Assembly: GCA_965223845.1 (NCBI GenBank)
Contig: CBDCXR010000004.1
Span: forward strand, 1,984,001-2,048,000
Length of the DNA: 64,000 bases
Reading direction: 5' to 3'
Origin: Planctomycetota bacterium
GTDB taxonomy: Bacteria > Planctomycetota > UBA8108 > SXIK01
Below are positions 42,802 to 60,257 of this stretch, in pieces; within the stretch, counting starts at the first letter, position 1; the number at the start of each line of letters is the position of its first letter. The notes beneath the pieces were generated by a model. It saw nothing but the letters and a program-made list of their open reading frames with translations, did not search any database and had not been told where the DNA came from. The position numbers were made by a program, and so were the translations under genes.

Positions 42802-42846
42802 TTCGGCCGGCTCGCGGAGGCGGAACCCCGTGGAGCGGAGGATCGC

Positions 42847-44754
42847 ATGAGCAAAGCGACGATCGCCGCCGCGGTGTCGGTGCTCACGCTCACGCTGATC
42901 ACACTGCTAGCGCTCGACTGGCTGAACGGGGAGACCGATCAGCCCGCCTCCGAAGTTGACGGCGAACGTACGGCGACAACGAACGACGAAGGCGCGCCGG
43001 AGAGTGGTTCGCCGAGCGACGTCGAGTCGATTCCCGCGATCGGCGCCGCGAAGGAAGTGACGCGGCGACTCGACGCGGAGGGGAGCTCGACGAACGAGCC
43101 ACCGATCACGGAGATCGCTTCGGGGAAGTGCACGCTCACGGTGACGGTGGTCCGCGAAGACGGAACGCCCGCCGCCGGAACGATCGCCCGCCTCCTCCTC
43201 GGCCGGGCCGCGCGCTTCGTCGCTGTCGACGCGGGTGGAGTCGCGGTCTTCGCGGACATCGCAGCGGGGACGTACTCACTCGAGCTCGCGGCGGAAGACG
43301 CTCCCGTCCTCGAGCTCACGCGGGCGCTCGCCATCGCCGATGGCGCCGCGATCGAGCTCGATCTCGTTCTTCCCCGCTTCGATCTCGGCATCACGGGACG
43401 CGTCGTCGACGAGGCGGGAGCGACGGTAGCGGGGATTTCGATCGAGGCTCGACGCCAAAACCGGAACCGCCGGGAAGACGAGCTCGCCCCGACTCGATCG
43501 CAAGTCGGTCGTGCCGTGTCGGGGGAGGACGGAGCGTTCGCCATCGAAGGTCTTCGCGCCGGCGACTACACCCTCTCGACGAAACCGACGGACGTCTACG
43601 GACGCTCGGTCACCGTTCTCCGCGCGGGCATCGCCTCGGCCGAGCTCCGCGTGGGGAAACGCGTCGAGCTGACGATTCGAGGAGTCGTCGTCGACGAGAA
43701 TCGACTGCCGGTGGAAGGGGCGACCGTCCGCCCGCGCGGACTCATCGGCGGCGCGGCACCAACGGACGAGGAGGGACGATTCGAGCTCGAAGTCGAAGCT
43801 GCGCGCGGCGAAAGCGTCGGCGCCGTCGAAGTGACCGCAGACGGTTTTCAATCTGAGCGGGTCCACATCCCGGTCGGTCGCAATGCGAACGCGTCGAACG
43901 AATCTGGGGAGGACGTTCGCTCTGTCGAGGTCGTGCTCAGCGCTCTCGGGGAGACGACGACCGTCATCGGTTGGCTCTACGGACCCGAGGGCGAGCCGGT
44001 GAGCGGTGAGACCGTTTTTCTCTATTCGCCATCGCGAACCGCGAACTACCAAGCGTCCTCGAACGCCGACGGTCGCTTTCGGATCGACGCGGTCGAAATC
44101 GCGAACGACTATCGACTCTGGGTGTATCCGAAATCGCGCTACGCCGACCATCGCCTCGATCCCGTCGCCATCACCGGGGACGACACGACCATCGAGGTCG
44201 AGCTCCGTACGGCGCCCGTCGGCCGCGTCACCGGTTTTCTCATCGATCCGTCCGGCGCGCCGATCGGGGATTTTTCGCTCTGGGTCCGAAGCATGACGGC
44301 GCAGGGCGTCGCGGTCTCGATTCGATCCGGCCCCGATGGCCGCTTCGAGGCGAACGATGTTCCAGCCGGCGATCTCCTCTTTGAAACGCGCTCCGTACCG
44401 TTTTTTCGCGTGAAGGGATACCGTCTCGATCCGAATGGCGAAGTCGACGTACGCCTCCCCATCGACTGGGGCGCATCCGATCTGAGCGGTACCGTCACCG
44501 ACACGGAGGGAGCTCCGCTCGCCGCAGCGAAGGTCCAGCTTCACTGGAGCCACGATTCCGAGGGCGGGATCCGGTCGACGTCCTACCGCACGGCGCACAG
44601 CGATGCCGAGGGTAGGTTCATATTCCGTGAGCTCGGAACGGGCGTCCACCGCCTCACCGTGGCCGCGGACGGCTACCGCTCCGCGCAGCTCACTCATATC
44701 GTGGGTGAGAACGCCTCGCCGCCGACGGTGCGACTTCACGCGAAGGCACGCTGA
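42847..44754 (+). CDS. Membrane-anchored protein with carboxypeptidase-regulatory-like (prealbumin-fold) repeats
   Basis: GGAGG RBS; N-terminal TM; about 6 repeats of G.V.D..G.P..GA.V.....TD.DGRF. Confidence 0.8.
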   Translation: MSKATIAAAVSVLTLTLITLLALDWLNGETDQPASEVDGERTATTNDEGAPESGSPSDVESIPAIGAAKEVTRRLDAEGSSTNEPPITEIASGKCTLTVTVVREDGTPAAGTIARLLLGRAARFVAVDAGGVAVFADIAAGTYSLELAAEDAPVLELTRALAIADGAAIELDLVLPRFDLGITGRVVDEAGATVAGISIEARRQNRNRREDELAPTRSQVGRAVSGEDGAFAIEGLRAGDYTLSTKPTDVYGRSVTVLRAGIASAELRVGKRVELTIRGVVVDENRLPVEGATVRPRGLIGGAAPTDEEGRFELEVEAARGESVGAVEVTADGFQSERVHIPVGRNANASNESGEDVRSVEVVLSALGETTTVIGWLYGPEGEPVSGETVFLYSPSRTANYQASSNADGRFRIDAVEIANDYRLWVYPKSRYADHRLDPVAITGDDTTIEVELRTAPVGRVTGFLIDPSGAPIGDFSLWVRSMTAQGVAVSIRSGPDGRFEANDVPAGDLLFETRSVPFFRVKGYRLDPNGEVDVRLPIDWGASDLSGTVTDTEGAPLAAAKVQLHWSHDSEGGIRSTSYRTAHSDAEGRFIFRELGTGVHRLTVAADGYRSAQLTHIVGENASPPTVRLHAKAR

Positions 44755-44762
44755 GAGCGAGT

Positions 44763-45479
44763 TCAGCGGCCGTGGCGCTCGTTGTGCCGGCGATAGCGGC
44801 GCGCTTTTCGTGCGGCGGAGCGAACGAGTCGCCGTCTCTCCTCTCGCGACAAACCCGCGGCAGACGCGTAGCGTGCGAGAAACGCCCGAAGCGAGGAGCG
44901 AGGAAGTCCTTCGTACGCCGCGGAGTCGCCGAGAGACGCGAGATCCTTGACGATCCAGCGACGCCGGCGGAACGACCGCACTCGACCGACGTCGATCAGC
45001 CGGAGATCACCACCATCGACCAAAACGTGGTACACGTTGAGGTCGCGATGACAGATCCCCGCCCGATGAAGTCGCGCGACGCGTTCGGCGAGCTGAGCCG
45101 CTAGCGCGGCCGCCGACGCTTCGGAGCCCCCGCGCAGTGGCCACTCCGCCGCAGGAAACCCGGGCGCGTGACGAAGAACGATGAAGCTCCCGCGCGCATG
45201 CCGCCCCCAACCGACGGGATCGACCGTTTCGATTCCGAGCTCGGCGATGCGCCGCGCGTTCGTCCATTCGCGCGCCGCCGGCGCGAGTCGCCGCGAGTGA
45301 AAGAACCACTTGAGGTGATAGGCGCCGGTTCGCTCCCAGACCGCATTCCAGTGGGAACGCCTGCGCTGCGTGACGTTCCAGTCGGTAAGACTCTCGTCGA
45401 GCGGAGGAGCGTCGCTCTCTCGTTCGATCCAATCGATCACGCACGCGGCCCTCCGGTGCCGCGCGAGCTCCCTACTCAA
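44763..45479 (-). CDS. Lipopolysaccharide kinase (Kdo/WaaP/InaA) family protein
   Basis: YHLKWF, AAREW, LHRAGICHRDLNVYHVL, LIDVGR, KDLASL; TTG start overlaps the upstream stop (TTGA). Confidence 0.82.
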   Translation of the reverse strand: MSRELARHRRAACVIDWIERESDAPPLDESLTDWNVTQRRRSHWNAVWERTGAYHLKWFFHSRRLAPAAREWTNARRIAELGIETVDPVGWGRHARGSFIVLRHAPGFPAAEWPLRGGSEASAAALAAQLAERVARLHRAGICHRDLNVYHVLVDGGDLRLIDVGRVRSFRRRRWIVKDLASLGDSAAYEGLPRSSLRAFLARYASAAGLSREERRRLVRSAARKARRYRRHNERHGR

Positions 45480-47827
45480 AACGACAGCCAAGCCGATTCG
45501 AGATCGGAAAGCTCGCTCGAGATGGTCGCTGCGCGCTCGTTCGATCCGACGCGCGCGAGCGCGCGCAACGCCTCGATTCGAAAGTAGACATCGGTCGCAG
45601 CGGAGCGCAATTCGGCTGATAAAGAAAGCGCGGGCACCGAGCTCGGCGCCGCCCAGCGCGCGACGCTCGCCCACCGCAGCGCCTCTCGTCGTTCGCCGAT
45701 TGCCGCGTAGAGGCGCGCGAGCTCGAGATACGCCAGCGCGGTTCCCGGCCAGACGGACTGGGCGACGCGCCTCCGCGCATCGCGAATCTTCGCGCGAATC
45801 GGTGGCGCGCTCTCCACCGCCGAGGTGGACGCCGCGCGATCCGGTGAAGCGACCTCTCCAGCGCGCTGCGCGAGCGCCAGACGCGCGCGATGGAAGACCT
45901 CCGCCGCGCGATCCGATTCGGGCACGCTTCGCAGGAGCCCGGCCGCCTCGGCGCGCGCTGCGTCGCCCTCTCCCCCGGCGGCGAGCGCCCAGGCGAGCCA
46001 GAGATCACCGCGCCACGACGCCCAACGCTTATCGCCCGCACTCACTCGCCGGAGCGCTGCGAGCGCCCCGCGCGGATCTCCGGCCAGGAGAAGCGCGCGC
46101 CCGAGCGTGAACGCCGCCTCCCCGTCCGGCTGGTCGATGGTCGCGAGGACGGCCGCGGCATCCGCCGGCCGGAGATCAACGAGGAGGGCGCGCGCTAGGC
46201 GTTCCTTCCAGACGACTCGCCCGGGTTGCGCCGATGCGATGTCGTTCAGGGTGTCGACGCCTCGCGCCCCTCCACGCGCGATCTCGCCGAGGGCTCGGCG
46301 CGCGCTCACGTCGAGGTGCTCTGCTCCGACGAGCGCGGCCGCGTGGTCGAGAACTCGCCTCGCGTCCGCGACGCGAAGAGCGTCGAGATACAGATCAGCG
46401 AGCGCGAATACCGCGCGTGGATCTCGCTTGAGGGAAGCCGACCGGAGCGTCGACTCGGCTCGCTCGAAATCGAGCCGGAGCGCGTAGCCACGCGAGCGGC
46501 TGACCGCGGCGCTCCCGATCGCACCCGTCGCCTCGAGCTCGAGGCCCCGCCGAATTTCGCGCTCGCTCGCGGCGAGAGACTCGGCTTGAGCGAACATCGC
46601 GCGCGCGTCGTCCGTCCGGCCGAGCCGTGCGAGGCACAAGCCGAGCTGATAATACGCGCGCTCGAAGTACGGATCCTCGGCGAGCAGCCGTGCGAAGCGC
46701 CGAGCCGCCGCGCTCCACTCGCGCTGCTTCGATCGCGCGAGCCCGAGGGCAAACCACACCTCCGATCGATTCGCGCTCTCGTTCTCGACGGCCTCGAGAA
46801 GCGGAATCGCCTCGTCGTACCGGCCGAGCTCGACGAGCGCGACACCCTCGGCCATCCTCGCCTCCCCGAGCGCCGGATCTCGCTCGCGAAAGTAGCGCGC
46901 GACCTCCGCGAGGCGCGGATAGGCACGGAAGCGGTGGAGGACCTTGATCGAATTGCCGAGAAACGCTCGCCCCTCGGGGTGCTCCCACGTGAGGGGGGAT
47001 GGGAACGCGAGCAGACGGAGCCCCTCCTCGACGGCCTGAAGCGCGATCGCGCGCGCGCCGCCACGGAAGCTGGTCTCCGCCAGCCAGTACCTCGGCTCGA
47101 GCCACCGCGGAAACTCGTCCGCGAGCGAACGGAGGGCGTCCCCGGCGTCTCTCCAACGCTGAAGTTCGTAGAGCACCTTCGCGCGAAGGAGTCGGTGCTC
47201 GACGTCCTTCGGAAACGCCCGAAGCCACCCCTCGAGGCGACCGAGGACGCGGCGATGGTCGCCCGCGTCCAGCGCGCTCGCGAGGCTCTCGAGATGGTAC
47301 GGGCCGAGCTCGCGGACGAGGAGACCGCGCCGTTCGGCGTCCGCGAGCGCACGCGCGAGTTCCGCGTCGGCCTGCGTCCGCTCTCGAGTGTCGCGGGCCC
47401 GGTCTCGCCGCTCCCGCGCGGATGCGAACGCCGACGCAACGGCCTCCACCACCTCCGGCGGCGCCCCCTCCGGCCACGGAATCGAGCCGATCGGAACGAC
47501 GTCGCGTAGGGGCGAGGTCGCGGTCGGCCGCGCCGGCACGGGCCGGGGCGTCGCGCGGGGATCCGAGTCGCGCGGAGAACACGCGACCTCGAAGAAGATG
47601 AGTCCGGCGAGCGCGGCGACGAGCCGTGAGGAGCGTCCCGGCGTGCCGGACGCCGAACGGCCCCCGAAGCGACACCGGACCCGCGGCGCGTATCGCTCTC
47701 GCTCGGCGAACGGTAGGTCGCGAGCCTCGATCAGCACGCGGGCTCGAACGCGGCGCGGACGAATCGCCCTTCGCCACCGTTCCTCGCCGTTCGCAGCGCA
47801 GCCCGAGTTGACCCGGAAATCCCGCAC
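45476..47827 (-). CDS. TPR repeat protein (probable lipoprotein)
   Basis: Hydrophobic stretch ending FFEVAC; TPRs (EVWFALGLA, AYYQLGLCLARLGR); start uncertain. Confidence 0.75.
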   Translation of the reverse strand: MRDFRVNSGCAANGEERWRRAIRPRRVRARVLIEARDLPFAERERYAPRVRCRFGGRSASGTPGRSSRLVAALAGLIFFEVACSPRDSDPRATPRPVPARPTATSPLRDVVPIGSIPWPEGAPPEVVEAVASAFASARERRDRARDTRERTQADAELARALADAERRGLLVRELGPYHLESLASALDAGDHRRVLGRLEGWLRAFPKDVEHRLLRAKVLYELQRWRDAGDALRSLADEFPRWLEPRYWLAETSFRGGARAIALQAVEEGLRLLAFPSPLTWEHPEGRAFLGNSIKVLHRFRAYPRLAEVARYFRERDPALGEARMAEGVALVELGRYDEAIPLLEAVENESANRSEVWFALGLARSKQREWSAAARRFARLLAEDPYFERAYYQLGLCLARLGRTDDARAMFAQAESLAASEREIRRGLELEATGAIGSAAVSRSRGYALRLDFERAESTLRSASLKRDPRAVFALADLYLDALRVADARRVLDHAAALVGAEHLDVSARRALGEIARGGARGVDTLNDIASAQPGRVVWKERLARALLVDLRPADAAAVLATIDQPDGEAAFTLGRALLLAGDPRGALAALRRVSAGDKRWASWRGDLWLAWALAAGGEGDAARAEAAGLLRSVPESDRAAEVFHRARLALAQRAGEVASPDRAASTSAVESAPPIRAKIRDARRRVAQSVWPGTALAYLELARLYAAIGERREALRWASVARWAAPSSVPALSLSAELRSAATDVYFRIEALRALARVGSNERAATISSELSDLESAWLSF

Positions 47828-47843
47828 GCCGATCGCGCCTCCC

Positions 47844-49538
47844 TCAGGGCGACTCCGCTCGACCGCGTCCTTCGTGGAGAACGTGCACCGAGCGCGCGGC
47901 AAAGCTCCCGAACGACTCCGTCTTCCCATTCGGCCACCGGACTCGCACGCGGTCGACTTTCTCCACCGTCCCGAGACCGAAGTGGAGACGCAGCGAGTTC
48001 TGCGACAGATAGCTCGCCCCGGCGCGCACGGTGTCCGAAGCTCTGAGCTCGCCCGCTTCGATCGAAACCCGCGCGCCTATGGCGTGGCGATTCTTCACGC
48101 CGCGAAGCTCGAGGAGAATCCACGCACCGCGATTCCCGCCGTCATTGATGAGAACGCTCGGCCGTTCCCGCGAATTGCAGACGACGATGTCGAGATCGCC
48201 GTCGCCGTCGAGGTCACCGAACGCAGCGCCGCGACTCGAGCGGAGCTCTCGTAACCCCGGGCCCGCGGTGTCGGTGACCTCCTGCATCGATCCGTCCCCT
48301 CGATTCTCGAACAACTGGTTCTGTTGCCGATACGTGGACGACTGATCGTACCGATCGATCTGGTCTTCGAGGTGTCCGTTCGCGATGAAGAGATCGAGAT
48401 CCCCATCGTGATCGAAGTCAAAGAACTTCGTTCCCCAGCTCACCATCGGGAGACAGGTCTCGCCGAGACCTCGGCCCATCCCGGAATCGACGTAAAACCG
48501 ATCGCTCTCGTGCAGGTAGAACGCGTTCAATTGTTTTTGGTAGTTGGTGACGAAGACGTCCTCGAACCCGTCGCCGTCGACATCGCGGACGTCGACGCCC
48601 ATGCTGCCCTGTTCATCTCCGTTCACGCTGAGCGCCATGCCCCACTCGAGCCCCACGTTCTCGAACGTGCCGTCCCGTCGATTTCGCCACAGGAAGTTCT
48701 CGCTCCCGTCGTTCGCTACGTAGAGGTCGGGCCAGCCGTCGTCGTCGAAATCGGCGATGGTGACGCCCATACCTCGGCCGCTCGCGACGGCCGAGATGCC
48801 GGCCGCCTCCGTCACGTCCTCGAAGGTTCCATCCCCTCGATTGCGAAAGAGCGAATCGCCGGCAGGGGCGTACTGCGCCGGAGCGCAGTAACCGGGAACG
48901 CCGTTGTTGAGGCAAGGCTTCGCGCTGGCGAAATCCTGGACGCAGTAATTCGTCACGTAGAGATCGAGATCGCCGTCTCGGTCCATGTCGAAGAAGGTCG
49001 CGCCGGCGCTGAAGCGCGCGTCGTCGGCGCCCGCAGCGGCGGGGAGCGGGGAAAACGAGTAGCCCGCGTCGGCACCATCGTTGCGGTAGAGGACGTTGCT
49101 CCCGTACTGGCACACATATAGGTCGAGATCGCCGTCGCCGTCGATGTCACCGGCCACTGCGCCCGAAGCGAATCCCGTTCCCGGAACACCCCGCAGCTCG
49201 GTGACGTCGCGGAATCGACCGCGTCCGTCGTTTTCGTAGAGCGCGTTCCGCGCGCTCGAGTCTGTGGAGGGGGCGGGAGGGAGGGGACGGCCGTTCGGGA
49301 AGTAGAGATCGAGATCGCCGTCGCCGTCGAAGTCGAAGAGAACGACTCCCGAGGCGAGTGTCTCCACGATGTAGTAGCGCCCGGAGCTGCCGTCGGTGTG
49401 CTGCAGATCGACTCCGCGCGCTGCGCCCTCCTCGCGAAAGAGGACCTTGTCCGCGCTGCCGCCGGAACGATCGCCCGTGCAGGCAGTGGTGACGAGTGCG
49501 GCGGCCCACGCGAGAGTGGGAATCCGAAGGATCTTCAT
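47844..49538 (-). CDS. CRTAC1/ASPIC-UnbV family FG-GAP repeat lipoprotein
   Basis: Lipobox TTAC; repeated D.D.DGDLDLY; SRGAAFGDLDGDGDLDIVV; C-terminal AIGARV...SYLSQ...LHFGLG...VRWPNG. Confidence 0.92.
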   Translation of the reverse strand: MKILRIPTLAWAAALVTTACTGDRSGGSADKVLFREEGAARGVDLQHTDGSSGRYYIVETLASGVVLFDFDGDGDLDLYFPNGRPLPPAPSTDSSARNALYENDGRGRFRDVTELRGVPGTGFASGAVAGDIDGDGDLDLYVCQYGSNVLYRNDGADAGYSFSPLPAAAGADDARFSAGATFFDMDRDGDLDLYVTNYCVQDFASAKPCLNNGVPGYCAPAQYAPAGDSLFRNRGDGTFEDVTEAAGISAVASGRGMGVTIADFDDDGWPDLYVANDGSENFLWRNRRDGTFENVGLEWGMALSVNGDEQGSMGVDVRDVDGDGFEDVFVTNYQKQLNAFYLHESDRFYVDSGMGRGLGETCLPMVSWGTKFFDFDHDGDLDLFIANGHLEDQIDRYDQSSTYRQQNQLFENRGDGSMQEVTDTAGPGLRELRSSRGAAFGDLDGDGDLDIVVCNSRERPSVLINDGGNRGAWILLELRGVKNRHAIGARVSIEAGELRASDTVRAGASYLSQNSLRLHFGLGTVEKVDRVRVRWPNGKTESFGSFAARSVHVLHEGRGRAESP

Positions 49539-50932
49539 CGCGTCCCTCCCCCGTAGCGCCGGCGAAACTCGGCCAGGCGGAACTTCAACATCTCCGAAGC
49601 GGGATGGCGTGCGACCCCGTCGGCGAGAGTTTTCTCGGCGAGGTCCGGCCGCCTAGTGCGAACGTAGGCGAGCGCGAGAACATCGAAGTACTTCTCTTCC
49701 GGAGAAATCTTCACCGCGCGCTCGGCGTGCTCCAGCGCGAGGTTCACGCGCCCGTCGTTCGGCAGATCGAAAAAGAGGACCCGCGCGATTTGAAAGTGTG
49801 CCTCGTGGAAGTTCGGAGAACGCCGCACCGCCTCGAGGAGGAGATCGAGCGCACTCTGTACTCGCCGCGGCGCGTCATCGCCCGCCCGCGCGAGCTCGAG
49901 CTCGAGGAGGGCCGAGCGATAGGGCCAGGTGCCGTCATCCGGGAGTTTCTCCGCCGCGCGAGTCGTCACGGCGAGCGCGTCGGTGAGTCGCCGGTCACGG
50001 TGGAGCATCGCGCTCAGCATCTCCCAGACTTCCGGATCGGATTCGTCGAGTGCAAGCGCTTCGCGGAGAGCAGCGTGCGCGTGTCGAGTGAATTCCCCGG
50101 CGAGCGCCGCGTCGCGTGTCGCCCCGGCTTCGCCGAGAAAGAGATCCGCCGCGTCGCGCCACGTCGCCGCAGCGGCGCGAAGACGCGTCGGGCGATCGTC
50201 CTTCACGGCGGGCGCCTCGCTCACCGCGCGGTAATCTTCGTCCTTGATGGAGCGAAACTCGGTCATCGCCTTCTCGGCCTCCTCCGTTCGTCCGAGCACT
50301 CGGAGGCTGCGGGCGAGGCCGTAGTGGGCGCTGCGCATCGCGGAGTCCTCGGCGATCGCCTTTCGGTACGCCGAGACGGCCTTCTCGTGGTCGCCGAGAC
50401 TCCCGTACGCCTGCCCGAGCGAGTAGAAGGTTTCGGGATTGGCCGACTCGTTTCGCTCCTCCTCTTCGAAGATCCGAACCGCATCGAGCGCTCGATCTTG
50501 GTGAAGCAGAATCAGTCCGATGCGCGTTCGGATTCCGCCCATGCGCGGCGCGACGCGGAGAGCCTGCTCGTACGCAGCCACCGCTTCGTTCATTTGGTTC
50601 TTTCGCTGCGAAAGTAGAAACCCGATTTTCCGGTAGGCGATGGCGAGTCCTGGGTCCCGCTCGACCGCCTCGCGGAACGCGAGGAGCGCCTCCTCCTCGA
50701 TCCCGAACCGCTCGTGGACGAGTCCGAAGTGGTACCGGGATCGCGGCGTTTCGCCCACACGCAGCGCAGCCTTTGTAGCCACCGCGAGGGAGTAGACGTA
50801 GAGATCGTCCTTGGGCGGCAGCGGGTCGTCGACGCTGGGGCCGCAGCCGAGGGGAACCGAGAGGATGAGACCGGCGACGAGCGCGCGGCTGCGGCTTCGA
50901 CGCCGAGAGCGGTGGGGGAGCCGGGGATTCAT
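49535..50932 (-). CDS. TPR repeat lipoprotein
   Basis: Lipobox PLGC; tandem TPRs; ATGA overlaps on both sides. Confidence 0.85.
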   Translation of the reverse strand: MNPRLPHRSRRRSRSRALVAGLILSVPLGCGPSVDDPLPPKDDLYVYSLAVATKAALRVGETPRSRYHFGLVHERFGIEEEALLAFREAVERDPGLAIAYRKIGFLLSQRKNQMNEAVAAYEQALRVAPRMGGIRTRIGLILLHQDRALDAVRIFEEEERNESANPETFYSLGQAYGSLGDHEKAVSAYRKAIAEDSAMRSAHYGLARSLRVLGRTEEAEKAMTEFRSIKDEDYRAVSEAPAVKDDRPTRLRAAAATWRDAADLFLGEAGATRDAALAGEFTRHAHAALREALALDESDPEVWEMLSAMLHRDRRLTDALAVTTRAAEKLPDDGTWPYRSALLELELARAGDDAPRRVQSALDLLLEAVRRSPNFHEAHFQIARVLFFDLPNDGRVNLALEHAERAVKISPEEKYFDVLALAYVRTRRPDLAEKTLADGVARHPASEMLKFRLAEFRRRYGGGTR

Positions 50933-53193
50933 GCTTCTCGTTCCGCGTGCAGCTCCGTTTCCTCGACCGCCGCCGACGGTTCCAAGCCTCGAAAGAAGCG
51001 CCACGTCGAGAATGCCGTGACGAGAAAGACGAGTCCCGCTACCGCGAAAAAATGCCGGAATCCGAACGCGATCGGAAGAAAAAACGAGCAGGTTGAACCG
51101 AGTCCAGCCCCGATCGCATCGAAAGCGAACACCGCGAGCGGATTCCGCGCCGATCGCTCGAACAGCGCCGGAAAGAAACTACCGGTGACGAAAGCGACCG
51201 GCGAGACCAAGACGATCATCGCGGTGGGGGACAGCGACTCTTGCGCGAAGTGAATCCCTACGACGAGCGCGCAGGCGAGAAGCTGAAGCGGAACGCGGAG
51301 GCGAGGCGCGATGACGACGCTGCCGAGACCCGACACGACGAGGAAGCTGATCGCGCCGAGGACGAGCGCGTCGTGGAACACGTAGAGCTTCTTGAAGAGC
51401 GCGAGAATGAGGTAGTGCTCGAAGAGGACGAAGTTCGCCCCGATCAAGAAGCTCAGCACGGCGACTTGCGCGTAGCTGCGCCCCGCAATGCGCGGATCTC
51501 CACTGCGCCGGAGTCCCCACGCGAGCAGCGCCCCGATCACGAGCAGCGTCCCGCACGCGATGGCGAACAGCGAGTAAAGCTGCTCCATGCTGAAGATGTG
51601 GCGAACGTTTCCGGCGAGAAAGGGCTGCTCGTCGGTGATCGGCCGGAACTCCGGATCCGCGACGACGACGAGCTCTTGCACCCGCGTGTTTCGATCGGGT
51701 GGAAGGACGCCCGACTCCGCCCGGAGGTAGGATTCGAGATCTTCGGCGGTGGGGAGCGGGGTCGAATCACTCTTTGCCGCGAGGATGAGATACTCTCCGG
51801 GAGGGGAACCGAACGCGCGGTACGCTCTCGCCCGCAGCCCGAGACCTTGATCGCCGAGCGAACGCACGTACTGGCGCGTCAGGATCTCCTTCGGGTCGAG
51901 TCCACTCGGATACCAGATCGCGAGGATCCCCTGGTCCGTCAGACGATCTCGCAGTGTGCGGTAGGCGTCGATCGTCCGAATCATGTTTCCGGGCTCGAGC
52001 ATCATCTGCGGATACCCGCCGACGCTGGGGAGGAAGATGAGATCGAACTGCTCTTCGGTCGACTCCATGAAGCCCCGCGCCTCACCGCGATGGAGCTCCA
52101 CGTTCTCTCCCCCGCCGTAGACGTCGTCGAACGCGGACGCCAGCCCGCCTTCGGTCACCCCCTCGATCACCGCCGGCTCGAGCTCGATCGCACGAATCTT
52201 CCGATAGCGCCGACCGGATCGCTTCGCCCACTGAACTTGCCGTCCGCCACCCGAGCCGATGATCGCAATCGCGCCATCGTCCGGCACGAGCTCGAGGGGA
52301 ACGGCGCCGATCATCCGCGCGTTGAACCCGGTTCCCTGCGAGTACTCCCACTGGAAGAGGTCGTTATAGAATCCGGCCTGCTCGCGGGAGGCGTCGCGTC
52401 GGAGGATTTCCGTGAGGCTGTAGCGCCCCCAACGCTGGAACTTGATCTCGTAGCCACGATCGACGAACTCCTTCGTCGATTGCATGCCGGCGCCCTTGTA
52501 CCAGTCGAGAAACCGCTCCTCGAATCCGAAGGCGGGGATCGTACCGAGAAGGACGAGTAACACGGCTTCGAGGGAGAAGATCCGCCGCGCACGAACCGTC
52601 GGTGCGACGAGCGCCGAGGCCCCGCAGACGAGCGCCACGCTCACGACGAGGATTTGACTGACGCCCACCGCGTGAAAGCGATGTAGCGCCAGCTCCACGC
52701 TCACGTAGGCGGACGCGGCGCCGAAGAGATAGAGCGCGTAGACCGTGCGCATCCGGTGCCGCATCGCTCTCAAGCCGAGCTGGTAGCCCAGGTACTCGCT
52801 CAGGCCGTACATGCAGAAGAAGGGAACAAAGAGCGCGGTGAACGTGCCCATCTGCAGGATCAGCCGGCCGAGCTCGACCTCGAAGAGGTGGGCTCGCAAG
52901 TAATCGAAGTGCTTGCACGAAAGGCTCGCGAAGACGGTGACGATCATCACCGCCTGGAGAAGAACGAGCGACTTTTGAAACGACGCCAAGTCTAGTCGGA
53001 AGTAGCGCGCTCCGAGAAACGCACCCACCGGGAAGCCGACGAAGAGCAAGTCGAAGAAGAGCGACGGCATGATGAAGAACGCGAGCAGCTTCCAGGCAGC
53101 AAGCGTGAAGAGAACCGTCGCGAACGACAGCGAGAAGAGAGCGAGCGTGAGCCGCTTCGGGCTTGGCCCACCAGTCGGGTCGAGAGAGGTCAT
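50929..53193 (-). CDS. Polytopic membrane protein with central spermidine-synthase-like SAM-binding domain
   Basis: About 7 N-terminal TMs; IIGSGGG, AIELEP, GEARGFM, FDLIFL, RPITDEQPF; about 6 C-terminal TMs. Confidence 0.82.
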   Translation of the reverse strand: MTSLDPTGGPSPKRLTLALFSLSFATVLFTLAAWKLLAFFIMPSLFFDLLFVGFPVGAFLGARYFRLDLASFQKSLVLLQAVMIVTVFASLSCKHFDYLRAHLFEVELGRLILQMGTFTALFVPFFCMYGLSEYLGYQLGLRAMRHRMRTVYALYLFGAASAYVSVELALHRFHAVGVSQILVVSVALVCGASALVAPTVRARRIFSLEAVLLVLLGTIPAFGFEERFLDWYKGAGMQSTKEFVDRGYEIKFQRWGRYSLTEILRRDASREQAGFYNDLFQWEYSQGTGFNARMIGAVPLELVPDDGAIAIIGSGGGRQVQWAKRSGRRYRKIRAIELEPAVIEGVTEGGLASAFDDVYGGGENVELHRGEARGFMESTEEQFDLIFLPSVGGYPQMMLEPGNMIRTIDAYRTLRDRLTDQGILAIWYPSGLDPKEILTRQYVRSLGDQGLGLRARAYRAFGSPPGEYLILAAKSDSTPLPTAEDLESYLRAESGVLPPDRNTRVQELVVVADPEFRPITDEQPFLAGNVRHIFSMEQLYSLFAIACGTLLVIGALLAWGLRRSGDPRIAGRSYAQVAVLSFLIGANFVLFEHYLILALFKKLYVFHDALVLGAISFLVVSGLGSVVIAPRLRVPLQLLACALVVGIHFAQESLSPTAMIVLVSPVAFVTGSFFPALFERSARNPLAVFAFDAIGAGLGSTCSFFLPIAFGFRHFFAVAGLVFLVTAFSTWRFFRGLEPSAAVEETELHAEREA

Positions 53194-53628
53194 GGCTCCG
53201 TCGGTCCATCCGTTCGCGCCCTAGCGCCGCTTGAACGGATCCTTGGCTTCAGTCTTCGAGTCGAGGGTTGGGTCGTCCACCGGCGGCGGTTGCGCGCCGC
53301 ACTGGCGCGACGAGGAACGCCGCGCCGCGCGCTCTCCCGGCGAGAACCGACCGTGCGGCCTCGTGGGGGTGTTCGCGGTTCCGCCGAGTCGACGTACGAG
53401 AGACCGAACTCGTCGCGGCTCGGTCCCGTCTCTGTATGGGCGACCAGTGGAGCTCGGCGGCGCTTCTCGGCGCTCGCAAGCGCGAGTTGCGGAATCGGTC
53501 GATGGCCACCGGAGCCACGACGGCGGCGGGGGAGAGCGCGGTCACCCGAGCGATTGTACCTCGCGCGCGAGTCGTCTCGAGAGCGCAAAGGACGTGCCAC
53601 CGTTCACTCGCGCGCTCGTGATCTAGAC

Positions 53629-53673
53629 AAAAAAAGAAGCCGGCAGCCCTCAACGGGATACCGGCTTCTTTTT
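53629..53673 (-). terminator. Intrinsic terminator (potentially bidirectional) ending the histone-like gene transcript
   Basis: A7-GAAGCCGG...CCGGCTTC-T5; on the minus strand a hairpin followed by U7, about 185 nt after the stop at 53858. Confidence 0.88.
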
Positions 53674-53857
53674 GCGACCTCAAGGCCGTCTCGCTCAGCA
53701 AGCCATCCGGAGAGTCAGACCGATGGGCTCCGACTTGCGTCCGCTCAACTCGAGACCGACCGTCTTTCGCGACCCTCGCGGATCGCCTTCGACCGCCGGC
53801 GCTGACCGGTCCGAACGCGACTGGAGCTCAACCACCGAGCGCTCTCTCGGAGAGCTG

Positions 53858-54226
53858 TTAGCGCCGACGCGCCTTCTTGCGAGTGGCCTTCTTCTTGGCC
53901 TTCTTGCGAGTCGCCTTCTTCTTGGCTTTCTTGCGAGTGGCCTTCTTCTTGGCCTTCTTGCGAGTCGCCTTCTTCTTGGCTTTCTTCTTGGTCGCTTTCT
54001 TGCGAGTGGCCTTCTTCTTAGCCTTCTTCTTGGCCTTCTTGCGAGTCGCCTTCTTCTTTGCGACTTTCTTCTTCGCTTTGCGCTTGGTCTTCTTCTTCGC
54101 GACCTTCTTCTTCGCGGCCTTCTTCTTGGTGGCCTTCTTCTTAACCTTGCGCTTGGCCTTCTTCTTCGCGACCTTCTTCTTCTTGGCAGCCTTCTTCTTG
54201 GCTACTCTCTTTTTCTTCTTCGCCAT
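53858..54226 (-). CDS. Histone H1/Hc2-like highly basic protein
   Basis: AAAGGAG RBS; 122 aa using only M/A/K/R/V/T (counted 69 K, 12 R, no acidic residue); KKATRKKAK repeats. Confidence 0.9.
   Translation of the reverse strand: MAKKKKRVAKKKAAKKKKVAKKKAKRKVKKKATKKKAAKKKVAKKKTKRKAKKKVAKKKATRKKAKKKAKKKATRKKATKKKAKKKATRKKAKKKATRKKAKKKATRKKAKKKATRKKARRR
53870..54060 (-). repeat. 27-bp coding tandem repeat (KKKATRKKA)
   Basis: Repeated (C/T)TTCTTGCGAGT(G/C)GCCTTCTTCTTGGC units on the plus strand, with synonymous variation. Confidence 0.8.
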
Positions 54227-55925
54227 ATCCGTTCTCCTTTGAAAGGCGTAAGAGAAACCCTAACAGTCCGCTGAAGGAGCGCTCCACGACAAACGCCGAG
54301 CGACGCTTCGATCAGGTCAGCACCGAGGTACGCAGGAGGTTGCCCTTCCGCGAGGCTCGAGTCGAAATGGGCGAACCGCATTCGACGCTGGTGGGTCTGA
54401 CTCTCTCAACGAGCTGTGAAGACACCGACAACACTCGAGTTCGTCCGGCGAAGCCCAACACAGTGCTTCGTTACCAAACGATCTCCTTAGCTCCCTGCGA
54501 GGAACCACGGCCAGGCGTCTTCCATGCCTGACGCCGGATCGACCGTGTCGATCCCGCCGTGGGCCGATTCGCGAGCACTGACTCCGAGTCTGACGCGTCG
54601 AAGACCTCGGGGCTGGCTCGAGTGACGGACCGCGCGAGATCGTGGTCCGCTCACAGGTCACTCACCGGTTCTACCTTCTCCTCTCGCGTCGTCGCCGTTC
54701 ACTTCGGCTCCCCGACTCGCGCTCGGCGCCGTTCACTAAGCTTGGCGGCCGAATTCTTCCGGCCGCCGAACCGAACGACTCTCCGGCGATGGTCAGGGTG
54801 CCGCGCGCGCAAGGCTTCGGAGTCGAGAGCATGCCTCTCTCTCCTCCCGTCATGCCGAGCTGCCCGATGGAGCCCGAACAGCAGACGCGACTGTAACCTG
54901 TTCCGTGAACCTCTTCCTTCAACACCTCCGCCCGCGCGCGCCGTCGCGATCGTTTGATCCGCAACTCCCGCGATCTCGGTCACCCGAAAGAGCGGGCTCA
55001 GCTTCATTCGCATCGCGATCTGCGTGGCTTCGTTGCTCACGCTGTGAACGCTACGCAAGGCTCGATTGCTTTTTGTACAAGGTCGTCAAAAAAGTAAAGA
55101 ACATTTTGCTAAAATTGCCAGAAAAAAGTTGACGCGCACTCTGCTATCGCAACAGACATCGCAAGTGCGATTCGCGCAGCGGACGCGCGTTCTTACATGC
55201 GAGTCCGTCGTCGACGCGCAGACGTGAACGAGTCTCCCTCACACCCGTCGAGACTCGCCTCCGCGCCTCGTTCGCAGCGTGTCGGCGATCTCGGTTACGC
55301 TGAGCCATCGTCCGCGATGTTCACGCCGGCAGCACTCGCACCGACACGTCTCCGAGAGAGTCGAAGGAGAACGCGAAAAGCCCCAAGCCGCGCGAATTCA
55401 TCGAAGATTTCGCACATTCTCGCGAAATCGACGCTCCGCTCGTCGGCTCGTACACGACGGCGTAGAGGACGTGAACGCGCGTCCGGAGCGGCGTGGGAAC
55501 GCGCTCGCGTCGACGCTCGGCTCGACTCGAGCCCAGCGCGAGCGCGCGAGCGCCGCGGCGGATGGCACCTCGTCTTCCGAGGGACGCGAACAGCGCGTTC
55601 GGCAACGCGGGAATCGTCGACGAGGAACGCGGTGCGATCGCACCTAGCGACTCCTTCGTCGCTAGTTCAAAGCGACAAAAAAAACTTCGCTAGTGCGTTC
55701 CGAGAAGTCGCGCGCACAGATGCCCTCGTCGCGTCGCAAACCGGTTCCACGAGGAAGGTCGACCGCGCTCCCGCGCTCGCGAACGCTCGTCTACGATGCA
55801 CGCTCGAACTCTCCGATCGCGGCGCTCGCGTGCGCTGAGGCACACTCCTCCCACGCTCGGCGCACTGAGGTTTTTCGTCCTTGTTCGGGTCGCTTCGGGT
55901 CGCGTTCCCGCAGGGGGTTTCGGGA

Positions 55926-55954
55926 TTGCATCGCTATTTGGCGAGGCCTACAAT
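55926..55954 (+). promoter_or_regulatory. Sigma70-type promoter upstream of the cohesin/dockerin gene
   Basis: TTGCAT-N17-TACAAT. Confidence 0.7.
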
Positions 55955-56451
55955 AGGCTCCAATCTCTCGTTTCGCGCGCTGAGTACGGCGCTTCGGAGG
56001 GACCCTTCAGAGGTCTCAATCTCGTCGCGAGTCGCGGCGAAGGGCTCCCTTTGCCCTCTCTCCGAACGCACCGAGTTCTCGGCGGAAGGCGGCGCTTCAG
56101 GGTCACGCGCGGATCGCTTCGATCGGCCGGATGACGGGCGCCCGAGCGGTCAACGAGACGACTTAGCAGAACGTGGCCGACTCCCTCCCGGACGAAGTCC
56201 TTCTGCGGCCAAACGAGGAATTTCCCATCAATTCACAATGGACGGGGTCGCGGTCGTAAGAGAGGGCCGCGATGGCCGTCGCTTCGCGGTCTCGATTCCG
56301 GGTCTCTTTACGTTCCTAGTTTCGACCATCGGCAGCCCTCGAGGCATTCGCGGCTCGAGCGCGAGTGGCGGGGCGCGGAACGGCAACCGAATCGGACGTC
56401 TAAATCTGTGCAAATAGGTTGTTTCGGCAGGAATACATCTGAGTGATCGAC

Positions 56452-57867
56452 ATGATTCGACGTGCTTTGCTCTCCACCTTCGTCGCTCTCGTTGCCGCCG
56501 GTTTCGGCGGTGAGCTGAGAGCCGAGAACGCAGTGGGACTCGGAGATGGCCAAGCCGATCCCGGCCAGGTCGCCGACGTTCCCGTGACCGTCAGCGGCGA
56601 CGCAGACATTCAAGGCGCCGTAGTGGTCTTCGAGTGGGCCGCCGACCGCGGGACCGGTGAAAGTCTCGAGGCGGGCGCTCCCGTCGCGAACGCAGACCTC
56701 GTCGTGACTCGCGTCGAGAGCTCGTTCATGGTGTTTTCGGTCGTCATGGACACGGACGGCCAAGACGCGGCGGTGATTCCGGCCGGCAACGGCACGGTCG
56801 TCGCGACGGCCAAGATTCGCTGCGCCGCCGACAACGACGGGACGCGCACGACGATCCGTCTCGTCGACAACAAGTACGCCACGATCGACGGCGGCCCCAC
56901 GCTCACCAACCTGATTGTGAGCGGCGGTCAGTCGATCTCGGCGAACGAAGGTCTCGTGCACCAGGCCGGTTCGTTCACGTGCGGCGAAGTCGGTGGTGGC
57001 GACGGTCCGCCAATGTTCGCCTGCGGCGGTGAGCTCGACGACAACGGCATGCCGACGGACGTCGTCGGTCGCCACGAGACCGCCCCCACGGTGTGCTTCT
57101 ACTACAAGTCGCCCGGCCGCGGGATCGGCGATCACGAAGACGAGATCCAGGGCCTCTCGATGGCCGTCACGTACGACTGCGCCCTCACCGCGCAGGAAGA
57201 CACGTTCTCCCTCGAGGGCGGTGTCCTCGCGGCGGACGGCGTCAACGCCGAGTTCGTCCACATCGACGTCGATAACAACAGCCGCGGCACCGACGGCGAC
57301 GGCTGCGAGTTTATCCTCGGCGTCCTCGTGGATGCCGTCGCGCCCTTCGACGGGCGTACGCTTCCGTCGACCTCGACGTTCAGCCGCCTCTTCTGCATGG
57401 ACTTCTTCATCGAGGATGACGCCATGTGCGATCACTGCCTCTGGATCAAGTTCATGGACGGGCTGAACGGGAACGGCACCCCGCCGGTCAAGAACCTCGT
57501 CGCCATCGACTTCTTCTCGCAGCGTCCGCAGACGATGGACTGCCGCGTGTGCGTCGAGGGCGAGGCGGAGTTCATTCGCGGCGACTGCAACTTCTCCGGC
57601 GAGATCATGATGGGCGTCGATATTGCCGACGCCGCGGCGATGGTCGGCCACTTCTTCCTCGATCCGCCCTGGAAGTTCGACGCGCCCTGTCAGGATGCCT
57701 GCGACGCGAACGACGATGGCCGTCTCGACGCGGCAGACGTCGTGTTCATTCTCGAATACCTCTTCGTTCCGGAGAAGCCGCAGCCGCCGGCCCCGGGCCC
57801 GATCTTCCCCGGCTTCGACGAGACGCCGGACGAGCTCGGCTGTGAGGGTGGACCGAAGAAGTGCTGA
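56452..57867 (+). CDS. Secreted protein with two cohesin-like domains and C-terminal dockerin-like domain
   Basis: Signal peptide; PGQVADVPVTV...IQGAVVVFEW and IQGLSMAVTYD...AEFV...FILGVLVD cohesin-like beta patterns; FIRGDCN...DIADA...CQDACDANDDGRLDAAD; strongly C/G-ending codons. Alternative start GTG 56443. Confidence 0.78.
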   Translation: MIRRALLSTFVALVAAGFGGELRAENAVGLGDGQADPGQVADVPVTVSGDADIQGAVVVFEWAADRGTGESLEAGAPVANADLVVTRVESSFMVFSVVMDTDGQDAAVIPAGNGTVVATAKIRCAADNDGTRTTIRLVDNKYATIDGGPTLTNLIVSGGQSISANEGLVHQAGSFTCGEVGGGDGPPMFACGGELDDNGMPTDVVGRHETAPTVCFYYKSPGRGIGDHEDEIQGLSMAVTYDCALTAQEDTFSLEGGVLAADGVNAEFVHIDVDNNSRGTDGDGCEFILGVLVDAVAPFDGRTLPSTSTFSRLFCMDFFIEDDAMCDHCLWIKFMDGLNGNGTPPVKNLVAIDFFSQRPQTMDCRVCVEGEAEFIRGDCNFSGEIMMGVDIADAAAMVGHFFLDPPWKFDAPCQDACDANDDGRLDAADVVFILEYLFVPEKPQPPAPGPIFPGFDETPDELGCEGGPKKC

Positions 57868-57897
57868 TCGCGGTTCCCGCGTAATCAGCGACGACCC

Positions 57898-57947
57898 GAA
57901 GCCGGGCGGTGACTCACGCGAGTCGCCGCCCGGCTTCTTTTTTTTTT
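57898..57947 (+). terminator. Intrinsic terminator
   Basis: GAAGCCGGGCGGTGACTC...GAGTCGCCGCCCGGCTTC stem followed by T10. Confidence 0.92.
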
Positions 57948-58035
57948 GCGCGGGCCGCGGTCGGATTCCGCGAACCGAAGTCTTCCGGCACCATCCACGG
58001 GGCGCCCGCGCGGCTCCATGACGCGCCGTGTAATC

Positions 58036-58818
58036 TCAGGCGCAGGTGTGAACGAGTCCCGCGAGCTCCGCCGCGAGCACGTCTCCCGACGGATAAGCGT
58101 GACCGCGGTGCTGACGAAATCCTTCGCCGTACGCCACCCCCGCCGCCTTTCCGCGCTCAGCGGCCCAGCGGCGCGCGCTGTCGAGGTACTCGTCCACTCC
58201 GTGATGCGCGCGGAGCCATTCCCGCTGCGTTGCGTGCTCCGCGAGGGCCGATAGCTTCCGCTCGAGGGAAGTCTCGACGTCGACGACGATCGCGGGCGAC
58301 ACCGGTCGCCCGAAGGAATCGACGCCGGCGATCGGATCGGCGTAGTAGAGCGCCGGAATCGCGTCGAGCGGAGCCGAGGTGCGCCGCGGCGCCGGCGCGT
58401 TCGGAATCGGCGCGCCGAACGTCGCCGCGCGCGCGACGAGCGAGATCTGCTCGTGGTCGAGCATGTAGTCGGACGGGCTGTGAGTGAGAACGACACGCGG
58501 CCGCACCACGCGGAGAAGCCCGATCGCATCGCAGAGCATCGCGTCGTCGTACCTGACACAGAGATCGCGTCGCTCGAGACAGTGGTAGACACCTCCGAGC
58601 CGGCGCGCCCCGCGGACCGCTTCAGCCCGGCGGAGGGACGCGATGTCCTGCGGTTCTTTTTCGGACGATCCGCAGTCGCCGGGCGTCGCGGTCGCGATGT
58701 GGACCGTCCAACCCGCGTCGGAGAGCAGGGCGAGCGTGCCGCCGCAGAGGATTTCCGCGTCGTCCGGATGCGCCATCAACGCGAGCACCGACGGCGCGTC
58801 GGCCCTCCCATCGTTCAC
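58036..58818 (-). CDS. PIG-L family deacetylase
   Basis: AHPDDAEILCGGT, TPGDCGS, RRAEA, THSPSDYMLDH, ALAEHATQ, EGF; GAGGTG RBS. Confidence 0.92.
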   Translation of the reverse strand: MNDGRADAPSVLALMAHPDDAEILCGGTLALLSDAGWTVHIATATPGDCGSSEKEPQDIASLRRAEAVRGARRLGGVYHCLERRDLCVRYDDAMLCDAIGLLRVVRPRVVLTHSPSDYMLDHEQISLVARAATFGAPIPNAPAPRRTSAPLDAIPALYYADPIAGVDSFGRPVSPAIVVDVETSLERKLSALAEHATQREWLRAHHGVDEYLDSARRWAAERGKAAGVAYGEGFRQHRGHAYPSGDVLAAELAGLVHTCA

Positions 58819-58940
58819 GAATCACCTCGTTCTCGCACTTCGTTCACCTCGCCCTCCGCCGTCGCGACGGGAAGCTAGCGACTGGCGCTCTGCCGAGGCG
58901 CGTGGTTCCATGAGCGCGTCGCAGCCGCCGCCGGAGCATC

Positions 58941-60257
58941 ATGCCGCAAATCCCTACCCGAGCCCACTCTCCCTCGGATCGACCGCCCCCGGCGGGAAGG
59001 CTCGAGATCTTCTCGTGGATGCTCTTCGACTTCGCGAACTCGAGCTACACCACGGTCGTGATCACGGTCGCGTTCGCGGTGTACTTCGTCGAGGCGGTCG
59101 CACCCGCCGGTACGGACGGGCAGCTCTACTGGGGAGCCGCGATCGCCGTGTCGCAGTTCCTCGTTCTCTGTACGGCGCCGATCATCGGCGCGATCGCAGA
59201 CTACTCCGCGGCGAAGAAGAAGCTCCTGCTCGTCACGTTTATCGGCTGCGTGGCCGCGACCGCCGCGCTCGGCGTCGTTCGACCGGGGGATCTCTGGCTC
59301 GGCTTTGCGCTCCTCGTCGCGTCGAACGTCTTCTTCTCGAGCGGCGAGAACCTCATCGCGGCGTTCCTTCCCGAGATCGCCCCGCCCGACAAGATGGGAC
59401 GCATCAGCGGCTACGGTTGGGCGCTCGGCTACATCGGCGGTCTCGGCTCGCTCTTCGCGTGCTACCCGTTCTTCGCGGACGGATTCGGCGCCGAGAACAG
59501 CGTGAACATCCGCTGGGCGTTCGTCCTCGTCGCCTGCTTCTTCTTTGCGGGAGGACTGCCGACGGCTCTCTTTCTCCGCGAACGCGCCGTCGCCACGCGC
59601 CGAGCGACGGGTCGGAGCTACGCCGCGATCGGGTTCTCGCGGGTCTTCGGCACGCTGCGCGACCTGCGCGGGCACCGGCAGCTCTTTCGCTTCCTCGGGG
59701 TGTTCCTCGTCTACAATTGCGGCGTCCAGATCGTCATCACCTTCGGTGCGATCTTCGCCGAGTCCGAAATCGGAATGAGCGGCGGAGAGCTCATGATCTT
59801 CTTCATGATCCTCCAGGTCTCGGCGGCCGTGGGGGCGTTCGGATTCGGCGTGTTTCAGGACCGCGCGGGAGCGAAGGCCGCGCTCGCCCTCTCGCTTCTC
59901 GTCTGGATCGGCGTGACGCTCGGCGCGTACGTCGCCGAGACCGCGACTCATTTCTACGTTGTCGGGAACCTCGCCGGAGTCGCGATGGGCTCGGCGCAGA
60001 GCGGTGCCCGTGCGCTCGTCGGCACGTTCTCGCCGCCGGGACGGAGCGGCGAGTTTTTCGGATTTTGGGGGCTCGTGTGGAAGCTGAGCGCCGCGCTCGG
60101 CCCGCTCATGTTCGGGTTCGCGAGCTCGCAGCTCGGAATGCGATCGGCCGTCCTCCTCACGACGCTCTTCTTCGTCGTGGGCGTAGTCGGACTCACCTTC
60201 GTGGACGAACGCGAAGGGCGCCGGGAAGCCGAGTCAACTGAGACTCCAAAACGCTGA
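58941..60257 (+). CDS. MFS transporter (UMF1/Atg22-like)
   Basis: SWMLFDFANSSYTT, GAIADY, AFLPEIA...GRISGYGWALGYIGG, GEFFGFW; about 12 TMs. Confidence 0.9.
   Translation: MPQIPTRAHSPSDRPPPAGRLEIFSWMLFDFANSSYTTVVITVAFAVYFVEAVAPAGTDGQLYWGAAIAVSQFLVLCTAPIIGAIADYSAAKKKLLLVTFIGCVAATAALGVVRPGDLWLGFALLVASNVFFSSGENLIAAFLPEIAPPDKMGRISGYGWALGYIGGLGSLFACYPFFADGFGAENSVNIRWAFVLVACFFFAGGLPTALFLRERAVATRRATGRSYAAIGFSRVFGTLRDLRGHRQLFRFLGVFLVYNCGVQIVITFGAIFAESEIGMSGGELMIFFMILQVSAAVGAFGFGVFQDRAGAKAALALSLLVWIGVTLGAYVAETATHFYVVGNLAGVAMGSAQSGARALVGTFSPPGRSGEFFGFWGLVWKLSAALGPLMFGFASSQLGMRSAVLLTTLFFVVGVVGLTFVDEREGRREAESTETPKR

Follow-up and report, generated by a model that had tools for sequence, protein, structure and literature searches.

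The subject of this study is a small lysine-rich gene and the two untranslated regions (UTRs) that flank it, on the minus strand of a stretch of 64,000 nucleotides (nt) of a Planctomycetota genome (assembly GCA_965223845.1, contig CBDCXR010000004.1, positions 1,984,001 to 2,048,000). The whole stretch is called the window, all coordinates refer to it, and the genome itself is referred to as G000. The gene product has 122 amino acids (aa), of which 57% are lysine and 66% lysine or arginine, arranged in AKKK-type repeats. It thus has the lysine/alanine-rich, repetitive and basic sequence of the H1-like proteins, such as Hc1/Hc2 and AlgP, and it is the sole H1-like one among the 13 lysine-rich open reading frames (ORFs) of the 7.9-Mb genome. 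"Histone H1-like" is here a label by composition, because the protein finds no match in Pfam (up to E=10) or NCBIfam (up to E=1), searches in which the HMMER bias filters make for a weak test of low-complexity proteins; a protein homology search returned two weak unnamed matches. Judging from an orthologue in synteny in the genome G003, a shared ribosome-binding-site (RBS) context and a terminator following it, the reading frame is a real gene.

The sequence of the locus is best explained as a monocistronic gene for a putative H1-like nucleic-acid-binding protein, with a strong and exposed Shine-Dalgarno (SD) sequence after a CU-rich tract and with an intrinsic terminator (Table 1). The context AGGAGAACGGAT(C)ATGGC at the start codon is identical in G000, G003, G014 and G016. 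The terminator corresponds to an inverted repeat (I3) that is 89% complementary; a simple terminator scan did not list it, and Rfam gives at this site just sub-threshold Thr_leader matches (E=0.12). A sigma-70-like site, probably the promoter of the downstream gene for a 754-aa membrane protein (50929-53193), divides the lysine-rich transcription unit from that gene. No tRNA or tmRNA gene was found between 50000 and 60000. The genome codes for the ribonucleases RNase III, RNase Y and RNase E/G, while RNase J was not found in the assembly, which is 91.7% complete. A limited literature search retrieved no paper that deals with lysine-rich genes in Planctomycetes or with the UTRs of such genes.

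When the minus strand is folded from 54440 to 53629 (812 nt), the minimum free energy (MFE) structure, at -328 kcal/mol, joins the final ~185 nt of 5' leader to the 185-nt 3' UTR and leaves the purine-only coding sequence (CDS) as a loop. The MFE structure contains 117 long-range pairs (64 GC, 33 AU and 20 GU); counts for this fold run from 111 to 117, the overall range being about 105-117. Folded alone, the 5' arm has no structure excess over shuffles (z=+0.66), and the 3' UTR reaches z=-1.54. An original prediction, made from the letters of this DNA, had described the ORF as enclosed by eight helices between the UTRs, with the RBS in the loop and a terminator after the outermost helix, and this layout is indeed present in the MFE structure, where the GGAG of the RBS is unpaired and the terminator follows the duplex. 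Numbering the proposed helices from the outside in, #2, #3, #4, #5 and #7 reappear exactly or within 1-2 nt, and #1 joins the same segments in a shifted register. Helices #6 and #8 are replaced; the latter was to engage the last codons, and in its stead the CU-rich tract before the SD pairs with the purine-rich early CDS (17 pairs). As for the side hairpins, those capped by GCAA (about 54331-54353) and GCGA (53769-53786) are formed, whereas the segments proposed for a UUCG hairpin and a second GCAA hairpin pair across the arms. Rfam 15, in keeping with the original prediction, offers no family for the structure: there is no match in the window at the gathering threshold, and between 53100 and 56600 at E<=5 there are sub-threshold terminator-like and chance matches only. 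In silico, the UTR pairing exists; in the cell, the duplex may form in the RNA.

Table 1. Features of the lysine-rich locus, with coordinates in the window, and corresponding loci in other genomes (G numbers, genomes; L numbers, loci).
Feature	Position	Strand	Remarks
Lysine-rich CDS	53858-54226	-	122 aa, MAKKKKRVAKKKAAKKKK…ARRR; starts MAKKKK; lysine/alanine-rich
CU-rich tract and SD	54232-54256	-	GGAG at 54234-54237, context AGGAGAACGGAT-ATG
Intrinsic terminator	53629-53674	-	AAAAAGAAGCCGG...CCGGCUUCUUUUUUU; 15-bp hairpin and U-run, seen in sequence and MFE
5' arm of duplex	54257-54439	-	predicted fold
3' arm of duplex (3' UTR)	53679-53864	-	predicted fold
Helix #2	54394-54405/53710-53721		perfect 12 bp, p=1.00; longest uninterrupted predicted helix
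Helix #3	54356-54365/53745-53754		10 bp, predicted
Helix #4	54315-54324/53798-53807		10 bp, predicted
Helix #5	54303-54311/53810-53818		predicted
8-bp GAGCGCUC helix	54277-84/53837-44		in MFE in place of helix #6
Helix #7	54260-54266/53855-53861		7 bp, predicted; takes in the UAA stop
Sigma-70-like site	53553-53580	-	TCGAGA-16-TACAAT; consensus match only
Upper leader part	54441-55062	-	without conserved sequence or ORF
AT-rich promoter-like element	55072-55127	-	core TTCTTTACTTnnnTGACGAnnTnGTACAAA; 56 nt, conserved
Element loci elsewhere	L102 (G003), L103 (G016), L104 (G012), L105 (G014)
Loci with -1 frame extension	L003 (G040), L007 (G027), L010 (G034), L011 (G029), L012 (G023), L013 (G032), L015 (G037)		3' end of MAKKK genes

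How far this pairing exceeds chance was measured as the energy gained when the two arms are folded together. Co-folding of a 214-nt 5' segment with 183 nt of 3' UTR gains -27.4 kcal/mol over the separate folds. Dinucleotide shuffles of the 3' UTR gain -12.0 on average (standard deviation 4.3, minimum -28.0), at least 1 of 100 matching the real value, and random genomic pairs of the same geometry gain -10.9 (standard deviation 4.8), with 1 of 220 attaining -27.4 and 5.9% having as many inter-arm pairs. Given random genomic partners, the real 5' arm attains the real gain once in 305 trials and the real 3' arm in none of 305. With the 5' segment lengthened to 300 nt the gain is -19.5 (z=-2.25 against shuffles, 1 of 60 reaching it). 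A folding-energy excess over both shuffled and native controls, on which the original prediction had counted, is therefore present and moderate in size: it lies in the tail of about 0.3-1%, or roughly 1 in 300 per locus, a rate at which chance alone would supply a 7.9-Mb genome with tens of gene-flank pairs like this one. The strictly nested order of the helices is in itself no evidence, because any pseudoknot-free co-fold is nested. A z-score of -5.1 for the whole unit was discarded as a measure; it is inflated because shuffling blends the purine-only CDS into the flanks.

The pairing bears no signature of selection on RNA. The inter-arm gain is -32.2 kcal/mol on the plus strand against -27.4 on the minus strand, and it is still -23.3 when G-U pairs are forbidden. 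When one arm is aligned globally with the other in reverse complement, there are 13 mismatches of G-U type against 6 of A-C type, which is not a significant difference. The argument that the G-U pairs favour selection at the RNA level finds no support in these values. Two of the helices rest on the word CTCGAG and one rests on the palindrome GAGCGCTC, palindromic words of this sort being frequent throughout the genome. CTCGAG is over-represented in the window as a whole, with 119 sites against 81.5 +/- 8.0 in shuffles, none of 100 shuffles reaching 119. If the arms are viewed as an inverted repeat in the DNA, none of 500 mononucleotide shuffles is as good, but this significance was dropped, since among 3000 native genomic pairs 7.7% match the global score; the best local alignment between the arms is the 12-mer only. 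Searches of the genome for further copies returned the self match alone for the 5' arm and, for the 3' UTR, the self match plus its own terminator palindrome (E<=0.01). A mobile element with terminal inverted repeats, of the miniature inverted-repeat or insertion-sequence type, was ruled out, because neither arm has a second genomic copy.

The comparison with relatives begins with G003, which belongs to a sister genus and is collinear with the window, its flanking blocks matching 40769-45320 and 56671-60202. Between these blocks, on the same strand, lies the positional orthologue, a 110-aa MAKKK gene with 71% DNA identity. When the 842-nt unit was compared by BLAST with 41 relatives, all of the matches listed stayed within positions 212-616 of the query, that is, the CDS and at most ~33 nt, and hence no homologues of the UTRs were found among them. 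The 3' UTR is unalignable to those of G003 or G014, and no relative with alignable UTRs was found. Nor is the pairing kept in the orthologues from G003, G016 or G014. In G003, where the 3' UTR measures ~95 nt, full-length folds give 0-14 pairs between 5' and 3' regions, inconsistent among folds and with a 5' partner that shifts with the assumed start, and co-folding gains no more than is usual (z=-0.09, equalled by 24 of 60 shuffles). G016, from another family, gives z=+1.64. The longest complementary run has 9 nt in G003 and 8 in G016, both within the values of shuffles, and in G014 only ~35 nt separate the stop codon from the terminator hairpin. Seven H1-like loci of other families, taken with 300/300-nt flanks, show co-fold gains of -6.1 to -16.6. 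A lack of conserved or covarying pairing in homologues had been named beforehand as refuting the original prediction, whose strong interpretation fails by this criterion of its own in the comparison with a sister genus and other families.

The downstream 754-aa gene is matched in 15 of the 21 genomes of the order, and among the eight whose upstream region was viewed a lysine-rich gene is adjacent in G014 only, there cut by the contig end. None of 54 metagenome loci of the 754-aa gene (45-60% identity) has an H1-like neighbour; four of them were flagged by a loose filter for lysine, and none of these is H1-like. Matches in a further genome (G002) were set aside as lysine-rich tails of other proteins. 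Incidentally, the syntenic blocks are 11.3 kb apart here and 3.4 kb apart in G003 (window 45320-53193 against G003 locus L096), and the extra DNA includes the 754-aa membrane protein, which has a weak aminopropyltransferase-like stretch and no homologue in G003.

Upstream of the predicted duplex lies a conserved AT-rich element (Table 1), which is 98% identical over 56 nt to G003 in otherwise unalignable intergenic DNA. It occurs in 5 of the 59 genomes of the class, G000 included, with ~83% identity in G016, G012 and G014. In G000, G003, G016 and G014 it shares the strand of the MAKKK gene and precedes its start by 852, 773, 464 and 375 nt, while the contig of G012 stops before the lysine-rich gene. 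Because its divergent neighbour is not the same in the two families, the element would belong with the lysine-rich gene, and I infer it to be the promoter region of that gene (…TTTACT…TTGTACAAAT…), its function and its orientation alike. The gene would then probably have a long leader of ~835 nt starting from this element. Since the promoter-like element is ~850 nt upstream of the start codon, the 5' arm would be internal to this leader and not the 5' end of the RNA; the original prediction, in which the 5' end of the transcript pairs with its 3' end, is not supported on this point. The spacing of the element implies either unusually long and fast-evolving leaders or else an unrecognised RNA between element and gene.

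The upper part of the leader has no blastn or tblastx similarity to G003, and its ORFs have no match in Pfam. It folds at -296.5 kcal/mol (z=-4.9 against 20 shuffles), and none of 322 native segments is as structured; a strand-specific excess of structure was considered and dropped, being equal on both strands once the signed base skew is modelled. Along the same line, the ~2 kb from 54441 to 56440 hold no Pfam-matching ORF, tRNA or Rfam family and are unalignable to G003 save for the 56-nt element, their surplus of folding energy being likewise the same on the two strands. Four sequencing runs of one sample (X1-X4) hold 93-94% of the words of the stretch and look DNA-like, with contigs of up to 213 kb at even depth, and the RNA runs X6, X8 and X9 hold only 5-6% of its words. 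The metagenome contigs from X1-X4 break at 55072-55120, which fits an element common to other organisms in the sample, given that it is single-copy in G000. Both the transcript boundaries and any effect in vivo are what I infer.

The reading favoured here, to which I give a probability of about one half, is that the complementarity of the flanks is specific to this lineage and not selected. Complementarity in the tail of the distribution would come from two non-coding flanks that are GC-rich and abound in palindromic words (CTCGAG, GAGCGCTC), and a purine-only CDS, giving the flanks no competing partners, would make the pairing more visible; if the duplex formed, the shielding of single-stranded RNase Y or RNase E sites and of the 3' end would be a by-product resembling the situation in the hbs mRNA of Bacillus subtilis. 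The moderate excess, the strand symmetry, the palindromic words and the absence from three orthologous loci favour this reading, in which the duplex is not a conserved RNA device. A number of points nonetheless weigh against the favoured reading. The main helices have pair probabilities of 0.97-1.00; the duplex stays, with 101-115 pairs, for any assumed 5' end from 54440 to 55062; the perfect 12-mer is attained by 2 of 200 shuffles; and a 1-in-300 complementarity whose place is precisely between RBS and terminator, in a small nucleoid-protein gene that is probably highly expressed, has the look of a functional clamp. Moreover, there is no congeneric genome in the collections searched, so that the comparison consists of a sister genus and other families. 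Divergence of 3' UTRs from species to species is reported (PMC7049690, in the accessible part of that article), so that a function confined to this lineage is only weakly contradicted by the lack of the pairing in other genera. Precedents exist as well, namely the mRNA of the nucleoid protein encoded by hbs and, as far as the accessible part of the source goes, the icaR duplex of Staphylococcus aureus as an RNase III substrate.

Several of these points favour a functional contact that joins the 5' UTR to the 3' UTR, of the hbs or icaR type, that would have evolved in this lineage, a possibility I hold to be real if on the unlikely side. As a clamp, the duplex would tie the ends of the CDS together and hide the 3' end as well as the sites for RNase Y and RNase E/G while the RBS stays open, making for a stabler nucleoid-protein mRNA; as a processing stalk, it would let RNase III trim the ~835-nt leader and the trailer, as in the maturation of ribosomal RNA (rRNA). 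In keeping with this, the strong pairing holds whichever 5' end is chosen, the excess is about 0.3-0.5% against native controls, the RBS is unpaired, the genes for the three ribonucleases are in the genome, and the 12-bp helix sits 37 nt upstream of the terminator, to be compared with the 14-nt hbs element just before its own. RNase III, however, is usually described as needing a duplex of about 20 bp, near-continuous, whereas the helices here measure 12, 10, 10, 8 and 7 bp with bulges between them. The absence of the pairing in G003, G016 and G014 and the lack of strand asymmetry also speak against function, as does the position of the 5' arm, probably internal to a long leader able to compete with it, the gain being reduced to z=-2.25 at 300 nt. 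In its fullest form the proposal would make the ~110-pair duplex a recent, lineage-specific device that closes an H1-like mRNA, either as a clamp or as an RNase III stalk freeing an end-paired mRNA from a ~1.4-kb precursor in the manner of rRNA, and in that form I regard it as rather doubtful. It is improbable that the arms are a relic at the DNA level, one flank being an inverted duplication of the other, made during the rearrangement that added ~8 kb of genes downstream relative to G003 and since decayed, the RNA pairing then being incidental. Such an origin would account for a complementarity that is Watson-Crick based and strand-symmetric, for the greater distance between the syntenic blocks (11.3 against 3.4 kb) and for a 3' UTR of 185 nt where G003 has ~95 nt, the two terminators having a GCCGGTATC stem in common; but the global inverted-repeat score is reached by 7.7% of native pairs, local alignment goes no further than the 12-mer, extra copies are absent, and neither a donor nor a junction is identifiable. 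Most improbable of all is a structured RNA of dual function, to which the basic protein it encodes would bind, making it a scaffold or an autoregulatory element, or which would serve to recycle ribosomes as a closed loop. The architecture itself invites the idea, and basic proteins bind double-stranded nucleic acids, but there is no Rfam family, no conservation and no strand-specific structure signal, and ribosome recycling via UTR pairing is not known as an established bacterial mechanism.

A separate observation concerns the lysine-rich genes of other families. Seven of the nine loci with a complete MAKKK gene end in A_AAG followed by the stop codon, four of them with the dnaX-type heptamer A_AAA_AAG and a fifth with a longer A-run containing the heptamer. 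In all seven the -1 frame runs on for 31-35 codons and encodes a conserved peptide, V..P….(R/K)PWR…P.T.PKY(D/S)(F/Y)W, in which third-position changes keep the residues, and stable structure begins right after the stop. In four loci the -1 frame can be reached only by a shift within the heptamer, because it lacks a start codon and is closed immediately upstream. On these sequence features the extension looks like a programmed -1 frameshift. The window gene and its G003 orthologue end in ARRR-stop without a -1 extension. In their 5' flanks L003, L007, L010-L013 and L015 share a conserved final part of the leader, where a GGGG(C)…CCCC hairpin immediately precedes the SD (…GCATCAGGGTTGAGGGGC…GCCCCCGATAGGAG…ATG), and this leader is unrelated to that of the window gene.

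To sum up, where a purine-only CDS has GC-rich flanks, a long nested fold in these is no evidence by itself; the impression it makes is tempered by native controls, by the opposite strand and by the orthologues. Were the duplex functional, communication between 5' and 3' UTRs would be known in Planctomycetota as well as in Firmicutes, and as a duplex of whole UTRs besides a 14-nt contact, and it would offer a handle on the dosing of a potentially toxic, highly basic nucleoid protein. The promoter-like element with its 375-850-nt leaders and the apparent -1 frameshift extension of the related genes are perhaps the more testable leads.

Among known systems, rRNA processing stalks and phage RNase III sites likewise have 5' and 3' flanks that form a long-range duplex around a functional RNA. 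Here the enclosed RNA is an mRNA and the longest uninterrupted helix has 12 bp, the RNase III gene being present. As regards the product, the accessible parts of the sources describe Hc1/Hc2 of Chlamydia (hctA/hctB) and AlgP of Pseudomonas as likewise lysine/alanine-rich, repetitive and basic, although the 122-aa protein has no homology to them detectable by hidden Markov models; hctA is described there as under post-transcriptional control by a small RNA acting in trans, IhtA, a mechanism unlike the pairing of UTRs in cis. Closer in kind is icaR of S. aureus, whose 3' UTR pairs with the SD region to form an RNase III substrate (Ruiz de los Mozos et al. 2013, PMC3868564). According to the accessible part of that report, translation is repressed by a short UCCCCUG motif that base-pairs with the SD itself, whereas in the predicted fold described here the SD lies in the loop and no anti-SD motif takes part. 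The closest parallel is the hbs mRNA of B. subtilis, which codes for the nucleoid protein HU and has, just upstream of its terminator, a fully complementary 14-nt contact between 5' and 3' UTRs (-19 kcal/mol) that was proven in vivo by compensatory mutations and limits cleavage by RNase Y (Braun, Durand & Condon 2017, PMC5737220, in its accessible part). As far as that part extends, the two cases have in common an mRNA that codes for a small and abundant nucleoid protein, a segment of a structured 5' UTR paired with a 3'-UTR segment just before the terminator, an accessible strong SD and, as the proposed effect, protection from an endonuclease (RNase Y). HBsu has the HU fold, whereas the planctomycete protein is of lysine-rich low complexity, and in place of the single 14-nt stretch of hbs there are ~110 interrupted pairs over ~185 nt per side, roughly eight times longer and a prediction only. 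Thus, although the original prediction saw no known class for this RNA, interactions between 5' and 3' UTRs are experimentally established for hbs and icaR, in the accessible parts of these reports; such interactions have so far been shown for only a few bacterial mRNAs, and by analogy the architecture predicted here is of a known kind, if functional a much longer one.

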